Source: Trypanosoma brucei (lineage: Eukaryota). From it: a stretch of DNA of 64,000 bases. The stretch covers positions 2,400,001 through 2,464,000 of the forward strand of contig CM000207.1 in the NCBI GenBank assembly GCA_000002445.1, written 5' to 3'. Below, one piece after another: positions 1,697-59,852 of this stretch (within the stretch, counting starts at the first letter, position 1; each line of letters starts with the position of its first letter). The position numbers were made by a program, and so were the translations under genes. The notes beneath the pieces were generated by a model. The model saw only the letters and a program-made list of their open reading frames with translations. It had not been told where the DNA came from and searched no databases.

Positions 1697-4133
1697 CGAA
1701 CGATCAGGGAAGTGAACGGCAATTGCAACTTGTTTTTTATTTGTATTTTTATTTTTGCTCTTGAGTCTAATGGTGGTGATGAGCATATTTGTACAGAGTA
1801 ATTGGGGATGTTTTCATGCCGGATGTTATGGTTTATTACATGAAATGCCCTTTTGGTAAATGCGTTCCATCAATTTTCGTCAAACTGACCGCTGTTATTG
1901 TTGTTATTGTTGTTTTTATTCATACACGCGCTAAATGATTGTGGGATCAGTTTATGGTACCGTTCAAAAATGTATATAACACGGCGTTGCATTTATGCAT
2001 GAAGTTAAGTTAAATTAAGTTAGGTTAAGTGAATTGTTCATTCAGTTGTCAAATATGCGAGTTTGAAACAGTGATTAAAGGATGGAACGGTGTGAAGTGC
2101 TCGATATCTCTTCTTTTTTTTAAAAAAAAAGTATATAAAATAAAGCAAGAAAGGATTTGAACGGGGTTTCGGAGGAATTCCTTCGTTAGTAAATTCTTTT
2201 TTTGATGCCTCCAGTGGTTTCAGGAACCGAACATAGATTATAACATCTCAAGTGGAAACTTAAATTTCACACGAAAATATGCCTTTTGAAAGTCGTTTAC
2301 AGCAAATGGCCATTAGCAATGATGTGCGTTGATCCTCCCGCCTAAGAGGTGATAACTTAAACCTTTAAAATGCTGGAAAGAATCTTTGAATAAGTTGAGT
2401 GTATGACATTATGGTTCCTTAACTCTAAATAAAACGCCACATATTGTAATGTTGAGGTACGGGGACTTGTGTGTCCCTCTACGCCCATTGGGGAGGGGAG
2501 AGCCGCGTATTTTAACTGCATTTGCAGCGTTTTATCCCTCAGTGTGTGGGTGTGGCCCATTTAAGGAATGCACAGCTGAAAGATGCTCCTTGAAACTGCT
2601 TTTGCTTTCACCCGTTAAATCCATGAAGCGATGACTTGCAACAAAAACAGCGTTTGTACGTGTATATTAATATGTTTATGTACGTGTGTGAATATGGATA
2701 TAAATATTGATATTGATATTTCCTCCTTGAGGATAATAGTAATTTCTTTCTTCAAGCGTTTGTCCTGCCCCAGTTACAACAAAGTAACATCCACATGTGT
2801 CTTCCTCTGCTGTTGATTTTGACGTGACTGCGAGACGTCCACTCGACAATGCGAAGATGTGGGAGAGCATGGCTGCGTTATACAGGTGTTTGCACTATCA
2901 ATTTGCTCGGCCCCTTATCAAGGGCTTTCGTTTTTACGTGTTAATGAAACCACGAATTAATTCATCAGTACCGTTGACTGCTCTTTCCGCTATGGGCGGC
3001 ATCAGAGATGTAACCGCACCATAATAGTGATGCGCCGACGCTCATAAGGAATGTGGTTTTCCACCTAAGTAGACTGTGAGGTGATGCTCCATTTGTATAT
3101 GCGCCGGTAGGGGCCATTTAGAGGCAAATGATATTCGTGTGTGTACACGTTCGCGTGTGTGCATGAGGGCTCTGGAACTTAAACTGGAGGTGTAAAGCAT
3201 ATACACGCCGACACTTCTATTTTTTTGGGGGGGGGAAGTACCAAATCTGACGGAGGGTTTGTCGTTTTCGCCCGGAGGATGTACCATTTTAAAAACTTAG
3301 GTTAATCAAATCGAAGAACATGTCGGCCGTGTTGATTTCAAGTGGGGTGTTTGTTGTGGGGAACAGCACACAAGTTAAAAGGAGTGCACAGTGCATGAGT
3401 TGCCTTGTGGGGTGGACCGGTGCATACATACGAATATTCAGAGACTCTTTTGGGTCTTTTTTTATTTTTTTAAAAAAAAACTTTGAAGATGCCCCTGCTG
3501 ATTTATAGTTACTCCACATCCGAGCGATGATTGAGTGGGAATGATCGCAGAGAGTCATACGCGTGTCGGCACTCCTGGCTTTTTTTCTTTTTATCAGGTG
3601 AGGTTGGTGCGTGTGTAACGGAAGCAGAAGAAGGTAAAGCGGGACGAATAGGAGAGTCTCAGTGGCAAAAGGATTCGTTACTGGCATGAAACTAATTGCC
3701 AATTCAAAGAGCTTTTCCGCATCTTTCCCAACAAGACGGGAGACGATAAAAGAAACAGGGCTGTGTAAGGGGGGAGGAAAATGGGCGAGCAATAGCCGCT
3801 GCAGTTAAAGAGTATGTGCTGCCTTGTGGGAAAGTTTAATGATTTGCATTCCTCAGCGGTGAGGTTAGGAATGAAAAAAAAAAATTTCCTATGGAAGAAA
3901 TCTCGCGGTTGGGTGCTGGGGAAGCCGAAGCGGCAGTTTGGGTCGCGATCATGCAATCCGCATCACTCGTGAAAAAATGTCTGGTTGACCACGCGTTTTT
4001 GTCGGTAATTGTGGGTCAGTGGCGCGCTATGACCTCTTCTAAAACCAATAAACAAATTGTCAACGAGGCTAGAACTTAACACATGTGGGTAAAGTCCGTT
4101 GTGGTGTAGCCGCTGGTTCGAACAATCCTAAAT

Positions 4134-4203
4134 GCTTTTTTTTTGCAATTTTTTAAGACACTCAACGTTGCTCCTCCCTTTCCCTCACCTTACCTCAGGG
4201 AGT
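4134..4203 (+). promoter_or_regulatory. polypyrimidine tract plus AG dinucleotides: candidate SL trans-splice acceptor region for the downstream ORF
   Basis: ctttttttttgcaatttttt...ctcctccctttccctcaccttacctcAGggAGt immediately 5' of ATG at 4204. This is the kinetoplastid trans-splicing architecture (established knowledge). The exact acceptor is not determinable from sequence alone. Confidence 0.4.
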
Positions 4204-5439
4204 ATGAGAACGATCCTCACCACATTAGGGTTATTGTTAGGCGTCACGCAGTACTCTGTGGGTGTCCCTGGAGCTGCCCTCAGCGTTGCAGCCGCTAGAA
4301 TAGTGTGCGAAGCGGCTATGGAACTTGGGAGAGCCGAATCTTATATCTCGATGAAACTGCGCGAAACGCGCGACTTGATCGAGTCCTTGAAAGTTGCTCG
4401 CAGACTCCTTGATGGCAAACTGCAGCGGGACAGACCCATCGGGGAGGAGTGCCTGAACGCAGTTAAGCTTATCGCTCACGCAGATGGTCTGGGTCGCAAA
4501 CTAGAGTCGCAATATTATGAGTTGGAGAGGATAGGGTTCAAAACCGCCTCCAAGTCCCGGCTGGCCTCCGGGAGACTCCACGAATTTATTTTAGTGTTTT
4601 CCCAGTGGCACGACGGCGAGGGCAGATGCATTGCCAACGGGGACGAGGAGGGCGACACACAGGGTGAAGTCACGCTGCGCCGTTGTATGAGCAGTTTGGT
4701 TAACGGAAGCTACGAAGACGGTGGCGGTGGCGTCCATCACAACTTCCCGCGTTATCTGAGGGAATCATTTCAGAATCTTTTTACGCTAGATGAGGATGTA
4801 TCGCTGAACAAGGATAATGGATGTCCTCTGACAAGGTGGAAAGTCATCCACAACGCAACGGCAAATGCCACGGGACGGAGTGGGGCCGCGGAAGATGTTA
4901 GGTGGGCAGGTGGGCTCCTTATTGTCACAGGTAACGGCCCCAGATGGATTTCAGACATTGAAGGGGTCCCGATGCTATCCAAAACGAAAACTAGCCTTGG
5001 AAAATTTGTGTCGATGTCCAGTAAAATTACCAGTGCCTTCAGTAATTTTATGGGAATAGTTTGGGCAGACAACCCGTGGTTGGTGAACAGCAGTGAAGTG
5101 GACAGTCTGATCGTGGGTGTTGACCTCTACATCTTTATGCACCCTTCCAGGGACTTCCAGATCAATGAAAGGGACCTAGACCGCCTGACAAAAACTTATT
5201 GTGGCGAACCCCTCCCCGCTCACGTGCGGCTCAGCGACAAAGTTGCTGACGGAAGGGACGGAAATAGTGACGTCTCGCCTCGCGGCCCTGTAGTCCCCGC
5301 AAACATATCTGAAACCAATACGATTTTCGGTAGCGATGATGACGATGAAGATTACAATGGTTTAACGGAGGTTAAGGCTGGGACCGAGCTTCTGTCGTTG
5401 TTGTTTCCCCTCGTGGCAATAAACCTTTTTCTTGTCTGA
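4204..5439 (+). CDS. GPI-anchored surface protein, ESAG6/PAG (transferrin-receptor-like, VSG N-domain-like) family candidate
   Basis: In-frame ATG (MRTILTTLGLLLGVTQYSVG = signal peptide) within the tracked ORF 4132-5439. The hydrophobic C-terminus ELLSLLFPLVAINLFLV is GPI-signal-like. The internal block ASGRLHEFILVFSQ..GRCI and the spaced Cys pattern resemble, from memory, the ESAG6 motif GRLEEWIFVFAQ. Several N-x-S/T sites. The family call is by recall, not search. Confidence 0.55.
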   Translation: MRTILTTLGLLLGVTQYSVGVPGAALSVAAARIVCEAAMELGRAESYISMKLRETRDLIESLKVARRLLDGKLQRDRPIGEECLNAVKLIAHADGLGRKLESQYYELERIGFKTASKSRLASGRLHEFILVFSQWHDGEGRCIANGDEEGDTQGEVTLRRCMSSLVNGSYEDGGGGVHHNFPRYLRESFQNLFTLDEDVSLNKDNGCPLTRWKVIHNATANATGRSGAAEDVRWAGGLLIVTGNGPRWISDIEGVPMLSKTKTSLGKFVSMSSKITSAFSNFMGIVWADNPWLVNSSEVDSLIVGVDLYIFMHPSRDFQINERDLDRLTKTYCGEPLPAHVRLSDKVADGRDGNSDVSPRGPVVPANISETNTIFGSDDDDEDYNGLTEVKAGTELLSLLFPLVAINLFLV

Positions 5440-5919: not shown

Positions 5920-8325
5920 ATGAGAGCAAACACAGAAAATTCGGTTATGATACTATTGTGATGCAGTCATTTCGGAAAGACGTGCAAAGGCGGTAGTGTT
6001 CAGCAGCGCAGCATTGTCGTCAAGGGAAACGGCGGGTAATGGGATGAGACAGTGGAGAACCCAGCACGCTGAAAGCTGAAGCACATTACAGACTCGTAGT
6101 GTTCAAGGAACGAACTGCACCTGCGTTAAGGTGCATGTCAACTTCAAAAATGCGAGGAATCAGCGCTGCTACTGAGAGGATTGTTGATTGCCACAGGAAG
6201 TGGCCCACCAACATGGTGCAGTGCGGTGCAATGAGGAGATCACTTGCTCACGCGACTCACAGAGGGAACTGAAGAGTATGCTACGGCCAAGTTAGAGCCA
6301 AGTGTACTGGACAGGATTATGAGGTGGGAACAGATAGGAACTAACAAGAAATCAAAACTACGTTTGTAAGATACACAAAGAAGAGGCGCACTGAAGATTA
6401 CTTCATGCCGCACTATTTTTGTGGCGGCCAAACTTAAAAGTGGAGAAGGGTAAAGGAAGTCAACGAGTGCCCGAAGCTTTTGTAATTATTTGGTTGAAGG
6501 AAGTTGCTCCAAAATGACGTGCGGAATGGCCGCGCAGCTAAGGCGGGAGAGAAAATTGTAGTAATTTAAAGCAAGGGTGAAGGAGCTTACCTGCTTATTT
6601 GCTTAAACGGCTGCACAGCAACCGTAGGGCAAAGAAATGGAATTCAGAAATACGGTAGAGGAAGATATGTGTACACGTGCAGCCGGTGTGGTTCCTTTGG
6701 GGTTCCGTTAGGTATTAAATGGGGGTAAAGCCATTGTCAATGACAGTGAGCACGAGGCCGAAGATAACGGCTGGTTCATCCGCTTACACAAGCAAATTTT
6801 TCAACAAACAGATACTTTTTTAACTTTCACTAACTGTAATTATATGCCTCTCAGTTAAACATAAGGCTAATAAATTCCAAAAGCGTTTCGATCGTAACGA
6901 TAGCGACATATGTCGCTAAGACACACATGAAAACATGCACAGTGGTCGTACCAAAGTATCCTCACCAGCGTAGCAACACAAAAAGTTAATGGAAATTTCC
7001 TATGGAAGAGAAACCATGCGATATTCCGGTAAGGCACTTGAAACCCTTCAGTAGCAGGCGATATCCACGGATCGTTAACAACATGGAATGAGAATCACAA
7101 CACACAAGGGGGAAAGGAATCGCAATTACTCTTTGAATATCAATACTTTTAGAGGGTCGAACTATCATCTGTCATCTGTCCCACGTGGCACTCTCACACA
7201 CCACATCAAGGGTGATGGGAGAAATTTTTTGTGGGAGCATACGATGGCCGATGAGTTGGTGAGAGATCAATTATGTTTGCAACACTGCCGTTTTGGTTAT
7301 TTTCTACTTGAGCACCTTTGATACAGTGGGCCATATCAGGGTTGTGCAATAAATGCGTAAAGTTAGTGGAGAAAAGTCTAACACCCTCTGCACCGCATCC
7401 TTACCAACAGAAGGAATGGCAGCAGCTCACTTAGATAAATCACTTCCCCCTGACAAGAATAGTTTAACAGAGGGCAGGTGAAAGGCACAGTGTTCAGCCT
7501 TTTACTGTTAAAAGCTGCAGTTACCTCCCTTCATTTTCTTACCAAACATCCCAAGACACAGCTTAAAGCATGGATTCTTTGTGGAAGACTTGACAGTGAG
7601 GAGAGGGAACGTGGATGGCTTTTCAGAAGGAACTGAATGTTATAGCTGTGATAGGAATCCGTATTTACTTCAGATAACTCGTCACGAAGAAAACAGGGTG
7701 TGAGGTGTTGGGAGGACATTTGGGGTCACGGTAATGCGGAAACGCGGCGACACCCACTCCATGTTGAATTTATATCCACACCGTTAATGTACTGGCAAAT
7801 CGGATATCCGCAGCGCCTTCTTACCCATAGAGTGCAAAGTGAAGAATACAAACTGACATTGACACTCTTCATTACTTCCAACATGTATTACACACGCGTT
7901 ACTCGGATGTAAGATATCGTGTGATTACAGGAGTTATTTCAAATATCAAGAGAGCTATGGAGAGTAATGGTTTCCTGATCTTTTTTCACCCATTCTGCCA
8001 TTTCATATCATCTCTCCCATGAAATTTCGATGATATGGGGAAACAATGTGTGGTGGAGCGTATATGTAAAAAGAAGACCTGAGGGCACTTTCACCCTGGG
8101 CACCTTGTCACACGAAATAGGAGCTATGGAAGACTTTCTCACTGAGGGTTGAGCCCCTTCCACACTATTTCATGGGATTCGTGCGAAGGGAAAACAGAAA
8201 AATTATGTTTTAGCAGTAGTCATGAAGAGTTTAATTTTGTGTGAAGTAATAACCCTGAGAACACTGAAACACTTCCATGAGATGTGTGGAAGAATGTCAA
8301 AATGTCAAGAAAGCTCAAAATACTT

Positions 8326-8355
8326 CACTTTTTGGTTCTTTTTTGATTTTGCTAG
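8326..8355 (+). promoter_or_regulatory. polyY tract + AG (8354-8355): predicted SL trans-splice acceptor for array gene 1, 5'UTR ~16 nt
   Basis: cttcactttttggttcttttttgattttgctAGagg, 17 nt before ATG 8372. It is conserved in every unit. Confidence 0.5.
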
Positions 8356-8371
8356 AGGACAAGGGTGAAAC

Positions 8372-9799
8372 ATGCAAGGCACTATGTACTGGGTTGTATT
8401 TTTAGTGGCGGTACTACAGGGTATTCATTTAGTGTCGGGCCAGGAGGAGATATTGAATGAACAAGAGTTTGAAGCGTTGTGTCGAATGATAAATTGGGCA
8501 GAAAGGGGACTGAAGCACATAAAAGTAACAAAACGAGTTACCCAAGAAGCTCTGAAAATAGGCGTAAGATATCTTGAAGTGGCCGGTGAGGAAAATGCTG
8601 CTGAACTCGCTGAGGCACAGGACTATTCTTGTACGAAGAGAATGGAGGATCGGAAAAGGAATTGTGGGCTGTACAAAACATTTTGGGAAGAGGCGCAGAG
8701 AGTATTGAACAAAGGGGTTGACAGCGGAGAAAGACCTGAGCGAAAAAAAAACGGCTTGCGGGAGCACAGTGCAGAGATTAGAAAAAAGGCAATGGAAGTG
8801 GCAGATATATATCACGAAATCGAAGCGAAGAGTCCATCTGGACAAGTAGAAAAGATTGAAGAACAGCTCAATAAAGCTCTTTATGGAAGGACACACACTG
8901 CTGAAGAGATAAGGGAAAGAGAAGAGCGAAGCAGGGTGTGCGGGAAAACATTACCAAATCCACCTAATAGAGAAGACCAATCACTAGCCGTGGATTTGCT
9001 GTGCTTGTGTGCAATGCACGGCTCTTGGAACGGCAGGGAGATATGCTGCGCAGACTGCACCACAGGAAGAAATAGCGAGGAGTGGAATCCAGAATCAAAC
9101 AGCGCGCACCGCTGGGAATTTCTGAAACAGAAGTGTGCGGGAGTCATTCCAAGCTATGGTAGCACGGGGGAAAGACTGCGTGATGCAAAACAAAATTTTA
9201 TGGATGCAGTAACGAAAATAACTACAAGGAGGGGGGAGCAGTTGTCCAAACTAGGAGAAAAGCAAAACAACAACGTAAAAGACTGCGGCGCGGACACAAG
9301 CAAGAGCCAAGGAATATGCATGCTGTACGGAGCAGTTGACGGAGTGAACCTGCCCTGGATGAAAACTTTGGAAAGTGTCGAAGACAGGATAGGACTTCTG
9401 ATGCAAGAGAGCCAAGACAAGACATCAAAACTTGAGAGAATTAAAGAGCTAAGTCAAGAGATAGAAAGCTTAATCAAAGGTGATACGGGGCGAGGAAGAC
9501 AACAGGGAAGACAGAAACGGAGTGTGGATACCGAGAACAGTGTCCCAGAAACCCCAGCTGACCCGAGCGATCCAACACAGTCAACCACAGATACCAATAG
9601 AAAAAAGCAAGGTGAAAGGAAACCGATATCAACAGGTAACGGTGCATCCAAAAGCTACGGTGGAGATGAGGTTGATTCTTACGATTCCAAATGCGATGGA
9701 GAAAACTCGGCATGCTCAGATTCACCAGCAAAGCCAACAGTAAAAAGCAGCAAAAGTGCTATAAATTGTCCACTGGGATTAATTTTGCTTTTGGTATAA
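8372..9799 (+). CDS. array paralog 1: secreted, GPI-anchored variant surface glycoprotein-like protein (475 aa), family unassigned
   Basis: Signal peptide MQGTMYWVVFLVAVLQGIHLVSGQ. Ten-plus Cys, including the LLCLCAMH..CCADCTTG block. Conserved RQKR, then a T/P/S/D-rich tail, then KCDGENSACSDSP, then the hydrophobic end INCPLGLILLLV (GPI-signal-like). Stop taa at 9797-9799 verified. Confidence 0.8.
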   Translation: MQGTMYWVVFLVAVLQGIHLVSGQEEILNEQEFEALCRMINWAERGLKHIKVTKRVTQEALKIGVRYLEVAGEENAAELAEAQDYSCTKRMEDRKRNCGLYKTFWEEAQRVLNKGVDSGERPERKKNGLREHSAEIRKKAMEVADIYHEIEAKSPSGQVEKIEEQLNKALYGRTHTAEEIREREERSRVCGKTLPNPPNREDQSLAVDLLCLCAMHGSWNGREICCADCTTGRNSEEWNPESNSAHRWEFLKQKCAGVIPSYGSTGERLRDAKQNFMDAVTKITTRRGEQLSKLGEKQNNNVKDCGADTSKSQGICMLYGAVDGVNLPWMKTLESVEDRIGLLMQESQDKTSKLERIKELSQEIESLIKGDTGRGRQQGRQKRSVDTENSVPETPADPSDPTQSTTDTNRKKQGERKPISTGNGASKSYGGDEVDSYDSKCDGENSACSDSPAKPTVKSSKSAINCPLGLILLLV

Positions 9800-12700
9800 A
9801 CGAAAAGTTCCAACACAAGGTAAGGAAAAAGAGATGGAATTGGTTGTGTTTGCGGCATCTCAATATTCCACACGGAGTGGGATGGTGTGCATTTCAAAAC
9901 TTGTACAGGAGACACGTGATGCGTCAGAGCAATCGTGCTCAGCAGCACAGCCATCCAGGAAGCCTAAACGAAAGAGGGAAATGTTGGGAGGGTTTATGCT
10001 TCGTGATACTAGTAATGCGTGTTGTTGAGAACCTTTTCATATTAAAAGGAACACTACAAAAACTGAAAGCATTTACGAATGATGGGAAAGCTCATAGAGG
10101 CTATAAACGGCTAAAATGTACCGGCCGTACTGAGTGGGTGGTGTGAAAATAAAAAGGGATATGTTGTAGAGAGTGTCAATACAGGAAGGCTACACAAATG
10201 GAAAGGAATAATAAATACAGAAAAAGGGACGTCATAATATTTTACTGAGCTCCATGCAGGAAGTGCAAGGGATATTTCCAATGGGGAAGTTGGGAAGGTT
10301 AAAAAAAAAGGCGAAAACATATGAGTGATAATGTAAATATAGTCTGATGGAAGGAAGTGTTGCTTTGGAAAAAGACAGACAAATAACTAAAAGAGGATTG
10401 ACTGGAGAAAATGATGCCAGGCGAAACACATAAAAAAATGGGTTCGGGAAGCATGGATATTTCGAACTTGGAACATAAAGACAAAAGAGCAGGAAAAGTT
10501 GTGGGAAATGGCATGTTATATATTTGCATCGTTATAGCAAAAAAAACTGTTTGGTGTGTCGAATGAGTGAAGGAACTGAGGCACTCAAGACCGCTGAATA
10601 AGAAAATGGAGAAGGAAAGCCACGGAAAGTAATGAGGGGATATCTTGAAAGCCGCGCACACAGACACGTACACTTGATAGCGGGGTGTGAAAAAGCAAGG
10701 AGTGGAACAAAAGCCTTCATCGCTATGATGGTTAAGAAATACGACACCACCACAATGCGCTGTATAATTCAAAGCAGACGTATTATTAAAGGGATCGGTA
10801 TTAGTGGAAATACCTGTGGTATTAACCTTTGCGGTGCTTGAAGTGATGGCATGAAAAAGATTAGAGATACCCTCTTCTGTGTTGTGTCGGATACATGGAA
10901 AAAGAAAGTGTGTGCTTGGCCTAAGGATGTAATGTGCTAAACCATAAGGCAGTAATAAAATACCTCAAAGCAATTCTATCGCCAAAAGGAATCGATGATG
11001 CTGTGGTTCAGACGAGAAATATCACACTACAGAATCCGACATTGCATGGGACGCAACTATGTGTCAACGCGGCGGTGATATAAGCTATCAAAGCAAAAAA
11101 TGATGCAATTATGGGGATTTATCATGCAGCAGCGTTGTCTACTATGGAAAATGCAGTAACCACTGAAAAGGAGGAAACATGCTTCAAGGAGCAAAAAGTA
11201 GCAGTGATTGCTGTAACAACAAGATTGTGGTTGTAAATAAAAAAAAAGAAAAGGAAGCGAAACTACGACCCAAGGATATTTAGAGTAGTATCGAAACTGC
11301 CTAAACATCACTAATGAATGCATATTTACCAAATGCGAATATATATGTATATGTGAATATATACGTACATCAATATTCTACAAAAATAGTGCTTTGCAGC
11401 GTGTGAGACTTTCAAAACATTTTTTGTGGAACACTTAAGCATAATTGTTGTTAATGGAAAATTGATCTATGGATACCTTCTTTTTGCTACATGTATTTTG
11501 AATTTGTTTGAGAGGAAAATGGTAACATCTCTGAGGTAAACTCTGGGACAATATAAAAGTGCTGGAGAAAATTTCTTGGTTTGACAGTAGCAATATCATG
11601 AACTAAAGAAGTGATTAAAAGATCTGTAACACGGGAGTATGTGCTTTTGCCATTGTACGATTTTCTTGATATATGCATTGAAGTGATTGATTGAATAGGG
11701 GTGCAAGTCTCATGAAACATGCTCTTCATTCAACCAAGGCTTTTTAGGAATATGCAGCAAAAGTCGAAAAATGACTGACTTGACAACCAAAATGGCGTCC
11801 CTATTCTATTAGTGAAAATTCGAATGAAACAGCACATAATGGAACTACATGAAAATTCAAAGGAAATGTGATATCAAATTCCTAACCCGCTGTATCAAAT
11901 TTCTCACACACCTTTCATAAAAGTATTTTTACATACATGTTTGAATTGAAAACACTCGACAAAATAATTTATGTGATCTGCGTATGAAATGTGTGATGAA
12001 TTCTGCCCAATCGTGCTAATCTCTCTATTATTGTTAAACCTCACCTTACCATTTGTTTCAGTAAAGGCAAGAAAGCAATATTAAATGATGAAATACTGTT
12101 AAACGGTGAAGTTACAAAGGAATATCTTTTCCGCAACAGAGAGTAACTATCTGAGAGGAGTTTAATGAACCGTGTACAATGATAGTGTCAGCACACTAAG
12201 TCTTGGAACAGCATAAACAGACTAGGATAACCAAAGGGGAAGAAGTGACACCTGGTGCTATGCAGTAACTAGCTTCAGAGGCAAAAAAAAGGCTGCTCAA
12301 TCCTATGGAAGCAATGTAACCTCACAGCCGTAGCAGTAGCGTGAATAAGAAAGGAAATGTGAACTTAGAAAAAACATATTGAACTCAAAGTGAAAAAGCA
12401 GAAGCAGTCAACCGCATAGAGGTATCAAAGGCATAACGTAGTTTGTTGGAAGGGGCGCCGAGCAAAATCAAGTTTTAGGCAGGTGATCCGGTATGGATGT
12501 ATCACACTGCACATGGATGCCACAAACCAAGAGACTTTGAATAGATGAAAGGAAAGATGAGAGACTTCGCGTCTATCAGGCGTGCTTGAGTTAGGGGCTG
12601 TAGTGGAAAGCAAACACAAACTGCTTACCCGAAGAGGGACAGTAACATGAACAATCCGAAATGGGTTTCAAACTATCTGGCACAATATCATTTTGACTGG

Positions 12701-15700
12701 GTCTGAGAGAGAGAGCTCTTTGGCCAGAGACAAACACGCGCGTTACTATAACCTTACAAATGACTCGAATACAGATATCAAATGCAATATTCTAAACGAA
12801 TAAAAACAAGGCTCAAGAGGCAACAATGCGGAAGATTCCGTTGAGTTACTTTACGTTAGCGTGAGGGTAGGAAAGAAAATGAAGAGATTTTGTGAATCTG
12901 GAAAAGGAAATGTGAGAACGCAACCCTACAACAGCTTTTAAAATATCCCATGGACTAAAGCGTTGAATAGAATTGACGGGAAAATGAGCAACCTGACTGT
13001 TAGCAAAGACAAGGGAAACTATGGCAAAGCTAACCTAGTTAAGCTGTGGCATCGCCAATTTAATTAAAACAAGCCAGAGTGAAGAGAGGATGCCATTCAG
13101 AGTTATAAGAAAGTAAAGCCATGAAAGTATAATTGGCACGATTACTTTGTTAAATTACGATACAAATACGAGTAAAACACAAATAATAATTATGGGAGCA
13201 AGCCAGGAGTTACCTGTGAAGGTGAAATTACTGCTGATTATAATAGTGCGGGTGTCTCTCGAATGAAACGCGAAAACCGTCGGCACAGTACAGCGTCCAC
13301 GCACTCAAACTGTGAAAGAGGATGTCAGTGGGTCAACGGTGAGATTGTGAGGCCACATCGCAAGCCAGTTATCTAAAACAGTGTGGGATTTGTTCAAACA
13401 TTACCCAGATTATATTTGTTTCTGTTTGTAAACGTGTGATTAGGCACTAAACTTCAATTCTAGCAGTGTTTGAATCTGTAGTACAATTAATATTTACCCC
13501 TTTCGTTTGAAAGTTAGTATAACTCTACGGTTTTGTCGGTCATTCAACGTAGTCTTGAAAGGGCCCAAAAGCACAAATACGTGACTTCTTAACATTTCAT
13601 CAGAGATGCACTACACCACACGGGTGAGCACATTGCCGTAACTAGGGGGTAGGTTTACTTTTTTGACACAGCTTCAAAAAGGTAGAACCTCGAATATGAT
13701 GCAAGTGGACCTCAGGTGGGGACTATCTGGCGCAAGAAAACGCTAGCAGAACTCGGGTCTCTCCCTCGCTTGAGGTAAAAGTTGTGTTGCATTGCGGGCT
13801 TCGGTGACGATTGCTCACTCCTTATTCAGATTTTTGAGGTTACCAAGCATGTAAAGCTAAGGGAGTGCAGTTCTTTCTCTGTAGTTGTTGGGTGAGCGGT
13901 TATGTAAATGTGTATATCTTCACATTTTTATATTTAAATGTTGGCTTTTACGAATTTTTTTGTTTGCAATGGGTTGAAATTACACGGCAACGACGTGGTT
14001 CAAGGTGTGAATTTTACTGATTTAGTTTTTGACGCCATCTCAGTTAGTGAAAGGATACGATGGCGATCCGCAAAGGGGAGGAAAAGGGCTTCCAAATTGC
14101 AGAGACGTACCAAAAATTGACAGGAATTTAGGTTGCTCAAAGGAAAATAATTATAGATATTAAGCGGCAAGAAACTTTGTGCTGGAGAGGCTTCTGGGGT
14201 TGGATTCTGTTTGACAGAAACTGCACGCCATGGCTGATAAGTGAGCTGCTTCCCATGAGGCATAGACGGGTGAATAATGCTTCCCTCAGTTTTTTGAGTG
14301 GGAATTCGTCGCTGTAAAAGATTCACCTGGTGTGAAAAGAATTGATAGAGCGTATCCGAACATTTTAATTACTCCAATCTAAGGAACAAGAAGTGTGAAA
14401 CATCTGGTGAGGGTAGAACGTCTTGTTACCTTAGCTCCCTTGGGCGGAACACAGGTGTAGGGTCGTGTAAAAAAGGGACGAGAGGTGTGTCTTCCTATTG
14501 AAGTTGGAGGTCTCTAGCTGAAAAAAAAAAGCCACTGACTCTAGTGACACGAATAGTCCAGACAATATCCCTAGGCGCGCGCACCTCACAGGCCGGCAGA
14601 ATAGTAAAACTCAATTTTCACTACAATCCAGTTACCAAACTGTACATTTAATCTTACTCTTCCCACTGTAAAAACATATAAGTGTTATTCAACTCGGGTG
14701 CTGAATCCATACCAAAGCACATAGAGGTAACAAATAAAAGTCGCTATTTCTGAAAACTAATTCACACTTGCCTGCGAATGCACACCTTTCCTTTAACATT
14801 CGTAAGACAGTATAGGGTCCTACTGAAGTCCTGGTTTACACAAGATATTATATACGATTGGTCACGCAGTCACCTCTGCTGCTTTCCGGACAATAAAGTG
14901 ACTAACTGCGAAGCATGGCTCTCAATGGGAGAGATTTTCTAAGCGGGTTAAAGAGCCATACTATGGAGACTCATACATGTGTATATTATTGTTGGGGTGA
15001 TTCACCAGCCCTTTTTACAAAATGTATAATATCCTCTTGCATTTGGCAGTGAAGCATAAAAGCGTGCTGCTGTTGTACTGAATATATCCCCTTTCCTTTG
15101 CGGTACCCTCCTTTCTCTTTATAAATAATGAGCCTGGTGTGAATTAGAAGAGTGTGCGAATTTATCCAAAATAGAGTGGGTGTAATGGGAAGACACATCA
15201 TGTGGAGGACACTCCGTATGCTAGCAGCTGATGCTTACGGTGGAAGTGGAAGAAGCATTCAGTATCCGAGGCGTAGTGCCACCTTGCCATAAATTGGCTG
15301 TCGGAGTTGACAAGAGATCACTGAAGTGGCAACCCTCCAAGGGCCACTTAGTGAAGATGTGCGCCATTATGTCGCTAAGACACACATGAAAACATGCACA
15401 GTGGTCGTACCAAAGTATCCTCACCAGCGTAGCAACACAAAAAGTTAATGGAAATTTCCTATGGAAGAGAAACCATGCGATATTCCGGTAAGGCACTTGA
15501 AACCCTTCAGTAGCAGGCGATATCCAAGGATTGTTAACAACATGGAATGAGAATCACAACACACAAGGGGGAAAGGAATCGCAATTACTCTTTGAATATC
15601 AATACTTTTAGAGGGTCGAACTATCATCTGTCATCTGTCCCACGTGGCACTCTCACACACCACATCAAGGGTGATGGGAGAAATTTTTTGTGGGAGCATA

Positions 15701-16784
15701 CGATGGCCGATGAGTTGGTGAGAGATCAATTATGTTTGCAACACTGCCGTTTTGGTTATTTTCTACTTGAGCACTTTTGATACAGTGGGCCATATCAGGG
15801 TTGTGCAATAAATGCGTAAAGTTAGTGGAGAAAAGTCTAACACCCTCTGCACCGCATCCTTACCAACAGAAGGAATGGCAGCAGCTCACTTAGATAAATC
15901 ACTTCCCCCTGACAAGAATAGTTTAACAGAGGGCAGGTGAAAGGCACAGTGTTCAGCCTTTTACTGTTAAAAGCTGCAGTTACCTCCCTTCATTTTCTTA
16001 CCAAACATCCCAAGACACAGCTTAAAGCATGGATTCTTTGTGGAAGACTTGACAGTGAGGAGAGGGAACGTGGATGGCTTTTCAGAAGGAACTGAATGTT
16101 ATAGCTGTGATAGGAATCCGTATTTACTTCAGATAACTCGTCACGAAGAAAACAGGGTGTGAGGTGTTGGGAGGACATTTGGGGTCACGGTAATGCGGAA
16201 ACGCGGCGACACCCACTCCATGTTGAATTTATATCCACACCGTTAATGTACTGGCAAATCGGATATCCGCAGCGCCTTCTTACCCATAGAGTGCAAAGTG
16301 AAGAATACAAACTGACATTGACACTCTTCATTACTTCCAACATGTATTACACACGCGTTACTCGGATGTAAGATATCGTGTGATTACAGGAGTTATTTCA
16401 AATATCAAGAGAGCTATGGAGAGTAATGGTTTCCTGATCTTTTTTCACCCATTCTGCCATTTCATATCATCTCTCCCATGAAATTTCGATGATATGGGGA
16501 AACAATGTGTGGTGGAGCGTATATGTAAAAAGAAGACCTGAGGGCACTTTCACCCTGGACACCTTGTCACACGAAATAGGAGCTATGGAAGACTTTCTCA
16601 CTGAGGGTTGAGCCCCTTCCACACTATTTCATGGGATTCGTGCGAAGGGAAAACAGAAAAATTATGTTTTAGCAGTAGTCATGAAGAGTTTAATTTTGTG
16701 TGAAGTAATAACCCTGAGAACACTGAAACACTTCCATGAGATGTGTAGAAGAATGTCAAAATGTCAAGAAAGCTCAAAATACTT

Positions 16785-16814
16785 CACTTTTTGGTTCTTT
16801 TTTGATTTTTCTAG
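16785..16814 (+). promoter_or_regulatory. polyY tract + AG (16813-16814): predicted SL acceptor for array gene 2
   Basis: Same conserved element as at 8326-8355. Confidence 0.5.
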
Positions 16815-16830
16815 AGGACAAGGGTGAAAC

Positions 16831-18255
16831 ATGCAAGGCACTATGTACTGGGTTGTATTTTTAGTGGCGGCACTACAGGGTATTCATTTAGTGTTGGGCC
16901 AGGAGGAGATATTGAATGAACAAGAGTTTGAAGCGTTGTGTCGAATGATAAATTGGGCAGAAAGGGGACTGAAGCACATAAATTTGGCACGACAGGTTAC
17001 TGAAGAAGCTCTGAAAATAGGCGTAAGATATCTTGAAGTGGCCGGCGAGGAGGAGGTTACAGAGCTTACCGAACTGCAGGAGAAGGCGTGCATGAGCAAC
17101 AAGAAGACAAGTCACGAAAAGAATTGTGGACTGTACAAAACATTTTGGGAAGAGTCACAGGAAGCATTGAAGAGGACTGCCAGATCGCAAGCGCCTCATC
17201 GAGGAAGGAACAGTTTGCAATATCATACAGCGGAAGGAATTAAAATCAAAGTAATGGAAGTGGCGGATACGTATCACGAGGTCAAAAAAGAAATCTTGAA
17301 ACTTAGAACGGATAACATGGAGGAGCAACTCAATCAAGCTCTTTATGGAGTAGGACATTTTACTGGAGAGGTAAAAGGAGGGGATTCGGACCGAAGCAGA
17401 GTGTGTGGACAAAACCTGGGCAACCGCGACGCCACTGGAGGTTGGTCACTAGCCGTGGATTTGTTGTGCTTGTGTGCGAGGCACATATCCTGGAGCAGCG
17501 TGAAGAGTGTATGCTGTGAGGAGTGCGGTACGGGAGAGAACAGCAACACATGGAACCCAGCATTAGACGGAGCACTACACTGGGAATTTCTAAAAGAGAA
17601 TTGTCCAGGTGATAATACAAATCACCATACAGAGGGCGAACAGCTGAAAAGCGCCAAAAAGAATTTTATGGCAAAAGTGTCTAAAATAGCCACTATCCCA
17701 TATAGAACTATGTACAAGCTTGGAGACAGTAAAAATATACAAACAAAGCAATGCGGGGCTAACATAGGCACTGGCCAGGGAATATGCGTGTACTACGGAT
17801 CTGATAATGGAGCGAATCTGCACTGGATGCAAGCGTTGGAAAGGGTTGAAAATGATGTTGAAGTTCTTCTGCAAGACAGTAAATATAAGTCGACTAAGCT
17901 AAAGAGGATTAAAGAGCTAAGTCAAGAGATTCAGAACCTAATCGAAGGTGGCACGCCGCGGGGAAGACAGAAACGGAGTGTGGATACCGAGAACAGTGTC
18001 CCAGAAACCCCAGCTGACCCGAGCGATCCAACACAGTCAACCACACATACCAATGAAAAAAAGCGAATTGTAAGAAAACCGATATCAACAGGTAACAATG
18101 CATCCAAAAGCTACGGTGGAGATGAGGTTGATTCTTACGATTCCAAATGCGATGGAGAAAACTCGGCATGCTCAGATTCACCAGCAAAGCCAACAGTAAA
18201 AAGCAGCAAAAGTGCTATAAATTGTCCACTGGGATTAATTTTGCTTTTGGTATAA
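16831..18255 (+). CDS. array paralog 2 (474 aa), same family
   Basis: Signal peptide MQGTMYWVVFLVAALQGIHLVLGQ. The C-terminal ~110 aa are near-identical to paralog 3. The internal block RVCGQNL..ATGGWSLAVDLLCLCA is shared with paralog 4. Confidence 0.8.
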   Translation: MQGTMYWVVFLVAALQGIHLVLGQEEILNEQEFEALCRMINWAERGLKHINLARQVTEEALKIGVRYLEVAGEEEVTELTELQEKACMSNKKTSHEKNCGLYKTFWEESQEALKRTARSQAPHRGRNSLQYHTAEGIKIKVMEVADTYHEVKKEILKLRTDNMEEQLNQALYGVGHFTGEVKGGDSDRSRVCGQNLGNRDATGGWSLAVDLLCLCARHISWSSVKSVCCEECGTGENSNTWNPALDGALHWEFLKENCPGDNTNHHTEGEQLKSAKKNFMAKVSKIATIPYRTMYKLGDSKNIQTKQCGANIGTGQGICVYYGSDNGANLHWMQALERVENDVEVLLQDSKYKSTKLKRIKELSQEIQNLIEGGTPRGRQKRSVDTENSVPETPADPSDPTQSTTHTNEKKRIVRKPISTGNNASKSYGGDEVDSYDSKCDGENSACSDSPAKPTVKSSKSAINCPLGLILLLV

Positions 18256-21200
18256 ACGAAAAGTTCCAACACAAGGTAAGGAAAAAGAGATGGAATTGGT
18301 TGTGTTTGCGGCATCTCAATATTCCACACGGAGTGGGATGGTGTGCATTTCAAAACTTGTACAGGAGACATGTGATGCGTCAGAGCAATCGTGCTCAGCA
18401 GCACAGCCATCCAGGAAGCCTAAACGAAAGAGGGAAATGTTGGGAGGGTTTATGCTTCGTGATACTAGTAATGCGTGTTGTTGAGAACCTTTTCATATTA
18501 AAAGGAACACTACAAAAACTGAAAGCATTTACGAATGATGGGAAAGCTCATAGAGGCTATAAACGGCTAAAATGTACCGGCCGTACTGAGTGGGTGGTGT
18601 GAAAATAAAAAAGTATATGTTGTAGAGAATGTCGATACCGGAAGGCTACAAGAATGGAAGGAATAATAAATACAGAAAAAGAGACGCCATACTTTTCACT
18701 GAGCTATCTACAGGACATGGAAGGGATATTTCCAATGGGGAAGTTGGGAAGGTTAAAAAAAAAGGCGAAAACATATGAGTGATAATGTAAATATAGTCTG
18801 ATGGAAGGAAGTGTTGCTTTGGAAAAAGACAGACAAATAACTAAAAGAGGATTGACTGGAGAAAATGATGCCAGGCGAAACACATAAAAAAATGGGTTCG
18901 GGAAGCATGGATATTTCGAACTTGGAACATAAAGACAAAAGAGCAGGAAAAGTTGTGGGAAATGGCATGTTATATATTTGCATCGTTATAGCAAAAAAAA
19001 CTGTTTGGTGTGTCGAATGAGTGAAGGAACTGAGGCACTCAAGACCGCTGAATAAGAAAATGGAGAAGGAAAGCCACGGAAAGTAATGAGGGGATATCTT
19101 GAAAGCCGCGCACACAGACACGTACACTTGATAGCGGGGTGTGAAAAAGCAAGGAGTGGAACAAAAGCCTTCATCGCTATGATGGTTAAGAAATACGACA
19201 CCACCACAATGCGCTGTATAATTCAAAGCAGACGTATTATTAAAGGGATCGGTATTAGTGGAAATACCTGTGGTATTAACCTTTGCGGTGCTTGAAGTGA
19301 TGGCATGAAAAAGATTAGAGATACCCTCTTCTGTGTTGTGTCGGATACATGGAAAAAGAAAGTGTGTGCTTGGCCTAAGGATGTAATGTGCTAAACCATA
19401 AGGCAGTAATAAAATACCTCAAAGCAATTCTATCGCCAAAAGGAATCGATGATGCTGTGGTTCAGACGAGAAATATCACACTACAGAATCCGACATTGCA
19501 TGGGACGCAACTATGTGTCAACGCGGCGGTGATATAAGCTATCAAAGCAAAAAATGATGCAATTATGGGGATTTATCATGCAGCAGCGTTGTCTACCATG
19601 GAAAATGCAGTAACCACTGAAAAGGAGGAAACATGCTTCAAGGAGCAAAAAGTAGCAGTGATTGCTGTAACAACAAGATTGTGGTTGTAAATAAAAAAAA
19701 AGAAAAGGAAGCGAAACTACGACCCAAGGATATTTAGAGTAGTATCGAAACTGCCTAAACATCACTAATGAATGCATATTTACCAAATGCGAATATATAT
19801 GTATATGTGAATATATACGTACATCAATATTCTACAAAAATAGTGCTTTGCAGCGTGTGAGACTTTCAAAACATTTTTTGTGGAACACTTAAGCATAATT
19901 GTTGTTAATGGAAAACTGATCTATGGATACCTTCTTTTTGCTACATGTATTTTGAATTTGTTTGAGAGGAAAATGGTAACATCTCTGAGGTAAACTCTGG
20001 GACAATATAAAAGTGCTAAAGGAAATTTCTGGGTTTGACAGTAGCAATATCATGAACTAAAGAAGTGATTAAAAGATCTGTAACACGGGAGTATGTGCTT
20101 TTGCCATTGTACGATTTTCTTGATATATGCATTGAAGTGATTGATTGAATAGGGGTGCAAGTCTCATGAAACATGCTCTTCATTCAACCAAGGCTTTGTA
20201 AGAATATGCAGCAAAAGTCGAAAAATGACTGACTTGACAACCAAAATGGCGTCCCTATTCTATTAGTGAAAATTCGAATGAAACAGCACATAATGGAACT
20301 ACATGAAAATTCAAAGGAAATGTGATATCAAATTCCTAACCCGCTGTATCAAATTTCTCACACACCTTTCATAAAAGTATTTTTACATACATGTTTGAAT
20401 TGAAAACACTCGACAAAATAATTTATGTGATATGCATGTGAAATGTGTGATGAATTCTGCCCAATCGTGCTAATCTCTCTATTATTGTTAAACCTCACCT
20501 TACCATTTGTTTCAGTAAAGGCAAGAAAGCAATATTAAATGATGAAATACTGTTAAACGGTGAAGTTACAAAGGAATATCTTTTCCGCAACAGAGAGTAG
20601 CTATCTGAGAGGAGTTTAATGAACCGCGTACAATGATAGTGTCAGCACACTAAGTCTTGGAACAGCATAAACAGACTAGGATAACCAAAGGGGAAGAAGT
20701 GACACCTGGTGCTATGCAGTAACTAGCTTCAGAGGCAAAAAAAAGGCTGCTCAATCCTATGGAAGCAATGTAACCTCACAGCCGTAGCAGTAGCGTGAAT
20801 AAGAAAGGAAATGTGAACTTAGAAAAAACATATTGAACTCAAAGTGAACAAACAGAAGCAGTCAACCGCATAGAGGTATCAAAGGCATAACGTAGTTTGT
20901 TGGAAGGGGCGCCGAGCAAAATCAAGTTTTAGGCAGGTGATCCGGTATGGATGTATCACACTGCACATGGATGCCACAAACCAAGAGACTTTGAATAGAT
21001 GAAAGGAAAGATGAGAGACTTCGCGTCTATCAGGCGTGCTTGAGTTAGGGGCTGTAGTGGAAAGCAAACACAAACTGCTTACCCGAAGAGGGACAGTAGC
21101 ATGTACAATCCGAAATGGGTTTCAAACTATCTGGCACAATTCCATTTTGACTGGGTGTGAGAGAGAGTTCTTGGGACAGAGACAAACACGCGCGTTACTA

Positions 21201-24200
21201 TAACCTTACAAATGACTCGAATACAGATATCAAATGCAATATTCTAAATGAACAATAAAAACAAGGCTCAAGAGGCAACAATGCATAAGATTCCGTTGAG
21301 TTACTTTACGTTAGCGTGAGGGTAGGAAAGAAAATGAAGAGATTTTGTGAATCTGGAAAAGGAAATGTGAGAACGCAACCCTACAACAGCTTTTAAAATA
21401 TCCCATGGACTAAAGCGTTGAATAGAATTGACGGGAAAATGAGCAACCTGACAGTGAGCACAAACAAGGGAAACTATGGCAAAGCTTACATAGTTAAGCT
21501 GTGGCATGTCAATTTAATTAAAACGTGCCAGAGTGAAGAGAGGATGCCATTCAGAGTTATAAGAAAGCAAAGCCATGAAAGTGTAATTGACACGATTACT
21601 TTGTTACAATCCGATACAAATACGAGTAAAACACAAATAATAATTATGGGAGCAAGCCAGGAGTTACCTGTGAAGGTGAAATTACTGCTGATTATAATAG
21701 TGCGAGTGGCTCTTGACACAAATGCGAAAACCGTAAGCACAGTTCAGCGTCCACGAGCTCAAACTGTGAAACAGGATGAAAGCTGGTCAACGGTGAGATT
21801 GTGAGGCCACATCGCGAGTCAGTCATCTAAAACAGTGTGAATTTCGTTCAAACATTACCCAGGTTATATTTGTTTCTGTTTGTAAACGTGTGATTAGGCA
21901 CTAAACTTCAATTCTAGCAGTGTTTGAATCTGTAGTACAATTAATATTTACCCCTTTCGTTTGAAAGTTAGTATAACTCTACGGTTTTGTCGGTCATTCA
22001 ACGTAGTCTTGAAAGGGCCCAAAAGCACAAATACGTGACTTCTTAACATTTCATCAGAGATGCACTACACCACACGGGTGAGCACATTGCCGTAACTAGG
22101 GGGTAGGTTTACTTTTTTGACACAGCTTCAAAAAGGTAGAACCTCGAATATGATGCAAGTGGACCTCAGGTGGGGACTATCTGGCGCAAGAAAACGCTAG
22201 CAGAACTCGGGTCTCTCCCTCGCTTGAGGTAAAAGTTGTGTTGCATTGCGGGCTTCGGTGACGATTGCTCACTCCTTATTCAGATTTTTGAGGTTACCAA
22301 GCATGTAAAGCTAAGGGAGTGCAGTTCTTTCTCTGTAGTTGTTGGGTGAGCGGTTATGTAAATGTGTATATCTTCACATTTTTATATTTCAATGTTGGCT
22401 TTTACGAATTTTTTTGTTTGCAATGGGTTGAAATTACACGGCAACGACGTGGTTCAAGGTGTGAATTTTACTGATTTAGTTTTTGACGCCATCTCAGTTA
22501 GTGAAAGGATACGATGGCGATCCGCAAAGGGAAGGAAAGAGACTTCCGGATTGCAGAGACGTACCAAAAATTGACAGGAATTTAGGTTGCTCAAAGGAAA
22601 ATAATTATAGATACTAAGCGGTAAGAAACTTTGTGCTGGAGAGGCTTCTGGGGTTGGATTCTGTTTGACAGAAACTGCACGCCATGACTGATAAGTGAGC
22701 TGCTTCCCCTGAGGCATAGACGTGTGAAAAATGCTTCCCTCAGTTTTTTGAGTGGGAATTCGTCGCTGTAAAAGATTCACCTGGTGTGAAAAGAATTGAT
22801 AGAGCGTATCCGAACATTTTAACTATTCCAATCTAAGGAACAAGGAGTGTGAAACATCTGGTGAGGGTAGAACGTCTTGTTACCTTAGCTCCCTTGGGCG
22901 GAACACAGGTGTAGGGTCGTGTAAAAAAGGGACGAGAGGTGTGTCTTCCTATTGAAGTTGGAGGTCTCTAGCTGAAAAAAAAAAGCCACTGACTCTAGTG
23001 ACATGAATAGTCCAGACAATATCCCTAGGCACGTGCACCTCACAGGCCGGCAGAATAGTAAAACTTAATTTTCACTACAATCCAGTTACCAAACTGTACA
23101 TTTAATCTTACTCTTCCCACTGTAGAAACATATAAGTGTTATTCAACTCGGGTGCTGAATCCATACCAATTCACATAGAGGTAACAAATAAAAGCCGCTA
23201 TTTCTGAAAACTAATTCACACTTGCCTGCGAATGCACACCTCTCCTTTAACATTCGTAAGACAGTATAGGGTCCTACTGAAGTCCTGGTTTACACAAGAT
23301 ATTATATACGATTGGTCACGCAGTCACCTCTGCTGTTTTCCGGACAATAAAGTGACTAACTGCGAAGCATGGCTCTCAATGGGAGAGATTTTCTAAGCGG
23401 GTTAAAGAGCCACACTATGGAGACTCATACGTGTGTATATTATTGTTGGGGTGATTCACCAGCCTTTTTTACAAAATGTATAATATCCTCTTGCATTTGG
23501 CAGTGAAGCATAAAAGCGTGCTGCTGTTGTACTGAATATATCCCCTTTCCTTTGCGGTACCCTCCTTTCTCTTTATAAATAATGAGCCTGGTGTGAATTA
23601 GAAGAGTGTGCGAATTTATCCAAAATAGAGTGGGTGTAATGGGAAGACACATCACGTAGAGGACACTCCGTATGCTAGCAGCTGATGCTTACGGTGGAAG
23701 TGGAAGAAGCATTCAGTATCCGAGGCGTAGTGCCACCTTGCCATAAATTGGCTGTCGGAGTTGACAAGAGATCACTGAAGTGGCAACCCTCCAAGGGCCA
23801 CTTAGTGAAGATGTGCGCCATAATGTCGCTAAGACACACATGAAAACATGCACAGTGGTCGTGCCAAAGTATCCTCACCACAGTAGCAACACAAAAAGTA
23901 AGGGTGAGTTCCTATGGAAGAGAAACCATGCGATATTCCGGTAAGGCACTTGAAACCCTTCAGTAGCAGGCGATATCCAAGGATTGTTAACAACATGGAA
24001 TGAGAATCACAACACACAAGGGGGAAAGGAATCGCAATTACTCTTTGAATATCAATACTTTTAGAGGGTCGAACTATCATCTGTCATCTGTCCCACGTGG
24101 CACTCTCACACACCACATCAAGGGTGATGGGAGAAATTTTTTGTGGGAGCATACGATGGCCGATGAGTTGGTGAGAGATCAATTATGTTTGCAACACTGC

Positions 24201-25237: not shown

Positions 25238-25267
25238 CACTTTTTGGTTCTTTTTTGATTTTGCTAG
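25238..25267 (+). promoter_or_regulatory. polyY tract + AG (25266-25267): predicted SL acceptor for array gene 3
   Basis: Same conserved element. Confidence 0.5.
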
Positions 25268-25283
25268 AGGACAAGGGTGAAAC

Positions 25284-33705: not shown

Positions 33706-33735
33706 CTTTTTGGTTCTTTTTTAATTTTGCTAAAG
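33706..33735 (+). promoter_or_regulatory. polyY tract + AG (33734-33735): predicted SL acceptor for array gene 4
   Basis: Conserved element, slightly diverged (ttaattttgctaaAGacaagg). Confidence 0.45.
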
Positions 33736-33760
33736 ACAAGGGTGAAACATCCAAGGCACT

Positions 33761-42189: not shown

Positions 42190-42219
42190 CTTTTCTGTTT
42201 TTCTTTAATTTTGCTAAAG
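42190..42219 (+). promoter_or_regulatory. polyY tract + AG (42218-42219): predicted SL acceptor for array gene 5
   Basis: Conserved element (cttttctgtttttctttaattttgctaaAGacaagg). Confidence 0.45.
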
Positions 42220-42232
42220 ACAAGGGTGAAGC

Positions 42233-54410: not shown

Positions 54411-54443
<33 letters not shown>

Positions 54444-59799: not shown

Positions 59800-59852
59800 A
59801 AAAGAAAGAAAGAAAGAAAGAAAGAAATCACACAAACACACACACACACACA
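59800..59852. repeat. (GAAA)n followed by (CA)n microsatellite
   Basis: Direct reading: aaagaaagaaagaaagaaagaaagaaa...cacaaacacacacacacacacaaac. Confidence 0.9.

Follow-up and report, generated by a model that had tools for sequence, protein, structure and literature searches.

Which kind of gene is Tb927.9.15680, a single-copy coding sequence in the core of Trypanosoma brucei chromosome 9 whose names in different sources conflict? The gene lies on the (+) strand of the 64,000-nucleotide stretch analyzed here (assembly GCA_000002445.1, contig CM000207.1, positions 2,400,001 to 2,464,000; referred to below as the window, in whose numbering coordinates are given), and it has been listed as 'variant surface glycoprotein', 'VSG (A-type), putative', 'VSG 1125.1322', 'T. 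brucei spp.-specific protein', 'hypothetical T. brucei specific', 'transferrin receptor subunit' and 'non-telomeric ESAG6'. An earlier note, made from the letters of the window, had read it as a solitary ESAG6/PAG-like gene of the transferrin receptor (TfR) family. The gene is already annotated and its likeness to ESAG6 has been remarked on in the literature, so that the finding is not new. The best explanation, to which we assign a probability of about 70%, is that Tb927.9.15680 encodes an invariant, solitary, receptor-like surface protein that is related to TfR but is neither a transferrin receptor nor a variant antigen.

Analysis of the predicted 411-residue protein revealed a sole Pfam match, to the A-type variant surface glycoprotein (VSG) family PF00913 (E 7.3e-7, 29.2 bits against a cut-off of 22.1, residues 29-246), whose N-terminal domain it shares with A-type VSGs. 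An exhaustive phmmer search over 1.84 billion representative proteins returned three credible relatives: the gene's own cluster and the Trypanosoma congolense proteins CCD14569 (E 1.1e-70) and CCD13731 (E 1.8e-5), the latter of which is named 'Transferrin receptor-like, PAG-like' and is 24% identical over ~320 residues. At E<=1e-3, the only T. brucei protein recovered by this search was the gene itself, with no PAG, and nothing beyond these relatives was matched, an absence that holds for T. vivax only if the library includes T. vivax proteins. An amphioxus protein (E 3e-16, 13 stretches) was rejected as spurious, as a 27-residue match is repeated along a tandem-repeat protein. Word-indexed protein searches, both with the single protein and with alignments that included T. 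congolense PAG-like proteins and ESAG6, recovered no ESAG6/7, PAG or VSG; their matches were limited to the gene itself and to Fam14 proteins of T. congolense.

Against the structures in the PDB, the single sequence matched ESAG7 (E 0.07) and ESAG6 (E 0.16) and nothing else. A profile built solely from the orthologues matched ESAG7 (1.6e-4) and ESAG6 (5.4e-4) but nothing else at E<10, so that none of the many A-type VSG structures was reached, and a family profile to which four T. congolense Fam14 proteins had been added matched ESAG6/7 at 1.8e-22 and again no VSG. Alignment of the orthologue pair with T. congolense Fam14 (PAG-like) plus ESAG6 using hhalign gave a probability of 98.5% and an E value of 4e-15 over 293 columns. 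ESAG6/7 are the best PDB match by sequence profile and by fold, although A-type VSG structures rank closely behind ESAG6 in the fold searches. Homology to ESAG6/7 and PAG-like proteins is stronger than homology to the variant a-VSGs, and the comparisons place Tb927.9.15680 in the TfR-like clade (ESAG6/7, PAG-like) of the A-type VSG superfamily. This relationship is real but remote, with an identity to ESAG6 of at most 26%, over about 112-126 residues, and of 24-26% to T. congolense PAG-like proteins. Pairwise scores are ~70 bits for T. congolense Fam14 and ESAG6, 55 bits for Tb927.9.15680 and Fam14, and 24-30 bits for Tb927.9.15680 and ESAG6, which suggests that, among the three lineages, that of Tb927.9.15680 has diverged the furthest. 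The family reading of the earlier note is therefore upheld by PF00913, by the orthologue profile and by hhalign; the outcome that it had named as fatal, no significant similarity to ESAG6/7/PAG or to VSG N-domain families, is not what these searches returned.

The layout of the protein is consistent with this placement. As in ESAG6/7 (PDB 6SOY/6SOZ; Fam15), there is a signal peptide, an elongated three-helix-bundle N-domain and a W-G-G-G strand region, and the C-terminus carries a glycosylphosphatidylinositol (GPI)-type tail as does that of ESAG6. The protein contains six cysteines and five N-glycosylation sequons. C35, C83, C142, C161 and C207 pair with C34, C84, C143, C162 and C215 of ESAG6, and all of them except C142 are invariant in a 7-sequence family alignment. 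The segment GRLHEFILVFSQWHDGEGRC (the GRLHEFILVF..C motif) aligns with GRLEEWIFVFAQAAGRSSQFC of ESAG6 and follows the GRL.E[FW]I..F.Q signature of ESAG6/7; its residues G123, R124, L125, E127, F128 and F132 are invariant in the same alignment. By itself, the GRL.EF motif would not be diagnostic of the TfR clade within the larger superfamily of A-type VSGs. AlphaFold2 (AF2) modeling gave a predicted local distance difference test (pLDDT) score of 58 and a predicted template modeling (pTM) score of 0.57 for the full-length protein, and a pLDDT of 73 and pTM of 0.71 for residues 22-340. In both models, the long helices span residues 28-75, 81-134 and 256-289, and residues 232-248 form a small beta element. 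The protein has the three-helix-bundle VSG-A/TfR fold with a conserved cysteine framework.

At the N-terminus, the hydrophobic h-region spans residues 3-14 (Kyte-Doolittle >1.8). The acidic linker that follows the folded domain has no cysteine, the last one, C333, being just upstream, and a hydrophobic tail of 17 residues (395-411) closes the protein with no cytoplasmic residues after it. The small residues N385/G386, upstream of the polar spacer, are candidate omega sites. Signal peptide, small omega residue, spacer and hydrophobic end are therefore all present, as expected of a GPI-anchored protein, and the orthologue retains the C-terminal layout of DYN, spacer and hydrophobic tail. This call is a reading of hydropathy, sequence and orthologue conservation rather than the output of a dedicated predictor, and the omega site and the signal cleavage site are predictions. 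The earlier note had described a reading frame at 4204-5439 with a signal peptide, a GPI-type C-terminus and an internal motif, and had advised a check for an omega site; the reading frame is intact and each of the features described could be located, the motif at residues 123-142.

The closest relative, T. congolense IL3000 CCD14569.1 (unnamed, 406 aa), is 38% identical over residues 6-399, and at this level of divergence it keeps the signal peptide, the core cysteines, the signature motif, the DYN of the linker and the GPI-type tail. Judged by this full-length alignment, CCD14569 is the one-to-one orthologue, and Tb927.9.15680 is consequently not 'T. brucei-specific'. Between the two species, the proportion of non-synonymous differences (pN) is 0.43 and that of synonymous differences (pS) is 0.74, a saturated value. 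The low pN relative to pS, together with the conserved layout at 38% identity, indicates from sequence comparison that the pair has evolved under constraint at the protein level. Four T. brucei-group genomes carry the open reading frame (ORF) uninterrupted, at 98.5-100% identity. The PAG-like Fam14 proteins of T. congolense (CCD13731 and relatives) share the same domain and the same cysteines, whereas the ~50-residue acidic linker ahead of the GPI signal is an extra feature of Tb927.9.15680 and its orthologue.

CCD14569 is located on an unplaced 25-kb contig, CAEQ01001566, where two genes of the ISG65/75 family flank it on one side and an adenylate-cyclase gene on the other (locus L003 1-2657, 15712-17724). 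This is a surface-protein neighborhood as in T. brucei, but with different members: there are ISG65/75-family genes instead of a VSG-related (VR) array or an RHS gene, and synteny is weak. The adenylate cyclase is the only common neighbor, and it was not counted as synteny because it lies on the other side and on the other strand and belongs to a family with 50-plus members.

Two of the existing names imply specific alternatives. One is that Tb927.9.15680 is a functional chromosome-internal copy of ESAG6, a true TfR subunit that pairs with an ESAG7 encoded elsewhere, as the database name and its use in quantitative PCR would have it; the PDB matches by sequence and fold and the GPI-type tail agree with this. 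However, the ~26% identity is confined in pairwise comparison to the N-terminal ~120 residues, and the ESAG6/7 head insertion of ~24 residues (about 247-270), FGSYQNGSMYVEGGEYGDATEYGA, is a gap in Tb927.9.15680 and in its relatives, including T. congolense Fam14. This segment is reported to have a role in transferrin contact. The region aligned to ESAG6 205-238 is likewise unrelated in sequence, and expression-site copies of ESAG6 are highly conserved (PMC3320590). A tandem partner without a GPI signal, as ESAG7 is to ESAG6, is also missing: tblastn queries with the Tb927.9.15680 protein, with residues 1-298 of ESAG6 and with four relatives from T. congolense found no further TfR-like gene, either across the window or within +/-10 kb of the gene in T. 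b. gambiense, T. equiperdum and T. congolense, in agreement with the earlier description of the gene as solitary. Tb927.9.15680 is in the chromosome core rather than in a telomeric expression site, and its 3' untranslated region (3'UTR) is 38.9-42.2% identical to ESAG6 3'UTRs (PMC6312234), and thus unrelated to the 3'UTR that mediates the iron response of ESAG6. Deferoxamine raised its mRNA by only 1.4-fold, and gallic acid lowered it, in a study that cites about 3-fold for genuine TfR (PMC6497272). In Jackson 2013 (PMC3605285), the ESAG6/7 homologues listed beyond expression sites are limited to Tb927.7.3250/3260 and the PAGs, and the true orthologue is a distinct T. congolense gene rather than one of the Fam15 TfR genes. 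Tb927.9.15680 is therefore probably not a transferrin receptor, and we consider a functional ESAG6 copy very unlikely. The other name, used for T. equiperdum and in VSG repertoire collections ('VSG 1125.1322'), implies a silent or atypical A-type VSG. The PF00913 match above the curated cut-off, the names themselves and the close ranking of A-type VSG structures in fold searches could be taken to support it, but in contrast to A-type VSGs (ILTat1.24 2VSG, MITat1.1 5LY9, MITat1.2 1VSG) the protein has no VSG C-terminal domain: residues 247-411 have no Pfam match and no cysteine past C333, and disorder is predicted from residue 338 onward. The 16-mer of VSG 3'UTRs, TGATATATTTTAACAC, does not occur in the window even at 2 mismatches, and upstream of the gene there are short simple repeats but none of the 70-bp type. 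The gene lies in the chromosome core and is conserved at 98.5-100% across subspecies, the orthologue-only and family profiles lead to ESAG6/7 and not to VSGs, and the full-length orthologue is present in T. congolense, a species reported to be without a-type VSG (PMC3605285). A VSG identity is thus hardly credible.

Two further alternatives were weighed. The closest named relatives are the T. congolense 'PAG-like' Fam14 proteins, and Tb927.9.15680 could be a PAG in function, with its main role either in insect stages or, at the DNA or RNA level, in the termination of a transcription unit close to a site of convergent strand switching. Annotated PAG-like genes all lie at such regions, and PAG1 promotes RNA polymerase I termination (PMC2731899); Tb927.9.15680 is near the 3' end of a (+) transcription unit that converges on a (-) RHS gene at about 46-47.6 kb, and in T. 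b. gambiense a single gene separates its counterpart from RHS. Unlike PAG1/2/4/5, however, it adjoins no procyclin gene, its neighbors being an adenylate cyclase and VR genes, and no procyclin (EP or GPEET) repeat coding sequence is found in any frame of the window. In microarray data, the mRNA of cultured bloodstream forms exceeds that of procyclic forms 3.5-fold (PMC2771046 supplements), the phmmer search found no T. brucei PAG at E<=1e-3, and the conserved cysteines, the motif and a pN well below pS point to selection on a protein rather than on a DNA element. Tb927.9.15680 is not a PAG in the strict sense, and a PAG-type function is unlikely. The suggestion of a PAG/Fam15-like chromosome-internal copy in the earlier note accordingly stands as far as a TfR-like gene in the chromosome core is concerned, whereas the remote identity and the lack of procyclin argue against both an ESAG6 copy and a strict PAG. 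Alternatively, the gene could be a relic, decaying or untranslated, whose intact ORF is transcribed solely within its polycistron and serves no function today. A maximum microarray signal of only 1394, the lack of any functional study in the literature that we found and the position in a dynamic 'VSG/ESAG island' (PMC2854126) would fit such a relic, which we nevertheless judge improbable: the ORF is intact in the four T. brucei-group genomes as well as in T. congolense, where all key features are kept, and pN is well below even a saturated pS.

We return to the reading of Tb927.9.15680 as an invariant, receptor-like surface protein. From its sequence, this is a solitary 411-residue secretory protein with a TfR-like/VSG-A domain that is conserved in two species. 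A maturation pathway is proposed where the signal peptide is cleaved, the five sequons are available for N-glycosylation, and the C-terminal ~25 residues are then exchanged for a GPI anchor. The elongated three-helix bundle would be carried at the parasite surface on the flexible acidic linker. A-type VSGs and TfR dimerize along their long helices, and since no ESAG7-like partner is present here, a homodimer with two GPI anchors would be the most likely form. It would be displayed at low abundance, mainly on bloodstream forms, in which the mRNA is detectable by reverse transcription quantitative PCR (RT-qPCR; PMC6497272), and the variable membrane-distal loops could bind some ligand. TfR, HpHbR and FHR are reported to spread over the whole cell surface whatever the number of anchors (PMC13186567), and for this reason we predict no specific sub-location. 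For a receptor-like function at the surface, taken by itself, we see the odds as roughly even.

Several observations weigh against this reading. On the microarray, the mRNA gave one of the lowest signals, on a scale where ~1300 marks the 5th percentile in procyclic forms (PMC2771046), and no protein-level evidence was found for Tb927.9.15680. The membrane-distal regions that would bind a ligand, 138-149, 168-177 and 201-229, are at pLDDT <50, and the AF2 models were built on shallow alignments of 5-7 sequences. GPI addition, surface location, dimerization and ligand binding are all deduced from family resemblance. The comparisons cover ESAG6/7 and T. congolense Fam14, and any placement of the gene within the clade, relative to T. 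brucei PAG1/2/4/5 in particular, is provisional. Among T. brucei subspecies, dN/dS is about 0.46, an uninformative value that derives from 6 non-synonymous and 4 synonymous changes.

TfR, HpHbR and FHR, which are known GPI-anchored receptors of trypanosomes, share a helical-bundle architecture. Given this, and given that Tb927.9.15680 is a conserved and invariant member with no assigned ligand, it is a reasonable though not urgent candidate for de-orphanization. A more specific proposal, which we put forward only tentatively and would not bet on, is that the orthologue pair represents a third single-copy, invariant TfR-like lineage beside Fam15 (ESAG6/7) and Fam14 (PAG-like), older than the split of T. 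brucei and T. congolense. Its product would be a homodimeric receptor with two GPI anchors, and the ligand a macromolecule of the host or vector that is not transferrin. If true, conflicting annotations have hidden a candidate for an invariant surface antigen or for a nutrient receptor.

The identification of the ORF with Tb927.9.15680 follows from three lines of evidence. The published RT-qPCR primers for this gene (PMC6497272) match exactly and once each in the window, at 5109-5128 (+) and 5292-5311 (-). The supplement of Jensen et al. 2009 (PMC2771046) places the starts of VR20 (Tb09.244.2330) and VR21 (Tb09.244.2310) at 2,408,372 and 2,416,831 of chromosome 9, which equal the window starts of the first two array ORFs, 8372 and 16831, and this identifies the window as T. 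brucei TREU927 chromosome 9, about 2.400-2.464 Mb. The published order of ESAG4 (Tb09.244.2380), Tb09.244.2340 ('hypothetical, T. brucei specific'), VR20-VR24 and RHS (Tb09.244.2180) also agrees with that in the window (PMC2771046). We are all but certain of this identification and of the family assignment that goes with it. The protein is 100% identical to the T. brucei entry ARB50711.1 and 98.5-99% identical to the T. b. gambiense DAL972, T. equiperdum and T. b. equiperdum proteins.

In the six-frame ORF list, the reading frame is longer, 4132..5439 (+) with 435 aa, and the ATG at 4204 is its second. Between the two ATGs there is a 16-nt polypyrimidine tract followed by the AG listed in Table 1, with a further AG at 4156-4157. 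Trans-splicing between the ATGs would remove the first, and 4204 is therefore preferred as the start. The T. congolense orthologue and ESAG6/7 align from residue 1 of the 411-aa form, and the T. equiperdum counterpart is annotated with 411 aa. A start at ATG 4132, as in the DAL972 annotation (434 aa), was rejected, as its additional 24 residues, which come before the conserved signal peptide, are encoded by the stretch with the polypyrimidine tract and splice acceptor.

Table 1. Features of Tb927.9.15680 and of the adjoining locus, in window coordinates.
Feature	Position	Strand	Description and basis
Coding sequence Tb927.9.15680 (old ID Tb09.244.2340)	4204..5439	+	411 aa + stop; ORF, identity, Pfam
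Probable spliced-leader acceptor site	4171..4199	+	Polypyrimidine tract 4171-4186, then AG 4198-4199; sequence, splice use inferred
Signal peptide, about residues 1-21	4204..4266	+	h-region; aligns with ESAG6/7 and orthologue leaders
A-type VSG / transferrin-receptor-like N-terminal domain, about residues 25-335	4276..5208	+	Three-helix-bundle core; C35, C83, C142, C161, C207
Family signature GRLHEFILVFSQWHDGEGRC, residues 123-142	4570..4629	+	Aligns with ESAG6/7 GRLEEWIFVFAQ...C
Disordered acidic linker (predicted), about residues 336-386	5209..5361	+	Includes DDDDEDYNG; pLDDT <50 from residue 338
GPI-attachment-signal-like C-terminus	5362..5436	+	Polar spacer LTEVKAGT, then hydrophobic tail ELLSLLFPLVAINLFLV; hydropathy
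RT-qPCR amplicon, 203 bp	5109..5311	+	Published label 'Tb927.9.15680 transferrin receptor subunit'; primers, PMC6497272 Table 1
VR array	6903..46181		4.65 units of ~8.46 kb
VR20-VR24 (Tb09.244.2330 to Tb09.244.2200)	8372-9799, 16831-18255, 25284-26708, 33761-35185, 42233-43654	+	VSG_B-domain genes
Convergent strand-switch region	~46200-47600		(+) unit meets (-) RHS
RHS gene	47587..49359	-	590 aa
Further ORFs	56599-57324, 58718-59416, 63279-63986	-	No Pfam match

Each of the labels 'ESAG6 copy', 'VSG' and 'T. brucei-specific' is incorrect or goes too far, and Tb927.9.15680 is better described as a TfR-like paralogue that is divergent and solitary and has an orthologue in T. congolense. The iron-chelation study (PMC6497272) took its RT-qPCR signal as a read-out of the transferrin receptor, though the protein is <=26% identical to ESAG6, and this mistaken proxy may account for the atypical response reported there. 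What the present analysis adds is the T. congolense orthologue, the corrected labels and the exposure of this proxy.

Tb927.9.15680 is flanked on one side by a receptor-type adenylate cyclase (ESAG4-like) and on the other by the VR20-VR24 array, which begins 1,464 bp past the stop codon of the gene. Both this spacing, given earlier as 1.4 kb, and the reported co-location with a variant array and an RHS gene proved correct. The locus fits the description by Jackson et al. 2010 (PMC2854126) of core-chromosome 'VSG/ESAG islands', one of which is on chromosome 9 with a segmentally duplicated atypical VSG in T. b. brucei. In DAL972, the order is adenylate cyclase, the Tb927.9.15680 counterpart, one VSG_B gene and RHS. 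Scans of the whole window for tRNA genes and Rfam families found nothing.

The VR20-VR24 proteins are mutually 58-70% identical, whereas non-coding parts of the repeat unit are 90-100% identical. The much faster divergence of the coding regions suggests diversifying selection or mosaic conversion in this core-chromosome array. TREU927 has five array copies and DAL972 one (L002 14244-15671), which is 60-71% identical to each TREU927 copy; this difference could reflect assembly collapse. On the T. equiperdum contig, an array copy of ~357 aa (L001 14177-15253) is truncated where the RHS gene adjoins. More than 6 kb of each 8.46-kb unit lies beyond the VR gene and contains only short low-complexity ORFs (for example 9691-10146 (+), 10299-10772 (-) and 27244-27897 (-)), of which the one checked had no Pfam match. 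In the RHS ORF, the match to the RHSP P-loop domain profile ends at position 250 of 312, and the gene may be a C-terminally truncated copy. Between the (-) ORFs beyond it, AT-rich simple sequence at ~54100-55150 and 57200-60250 consists of TA/CA-type repeats with translations such as 'IYIYIY' and 'CVCVCV'.

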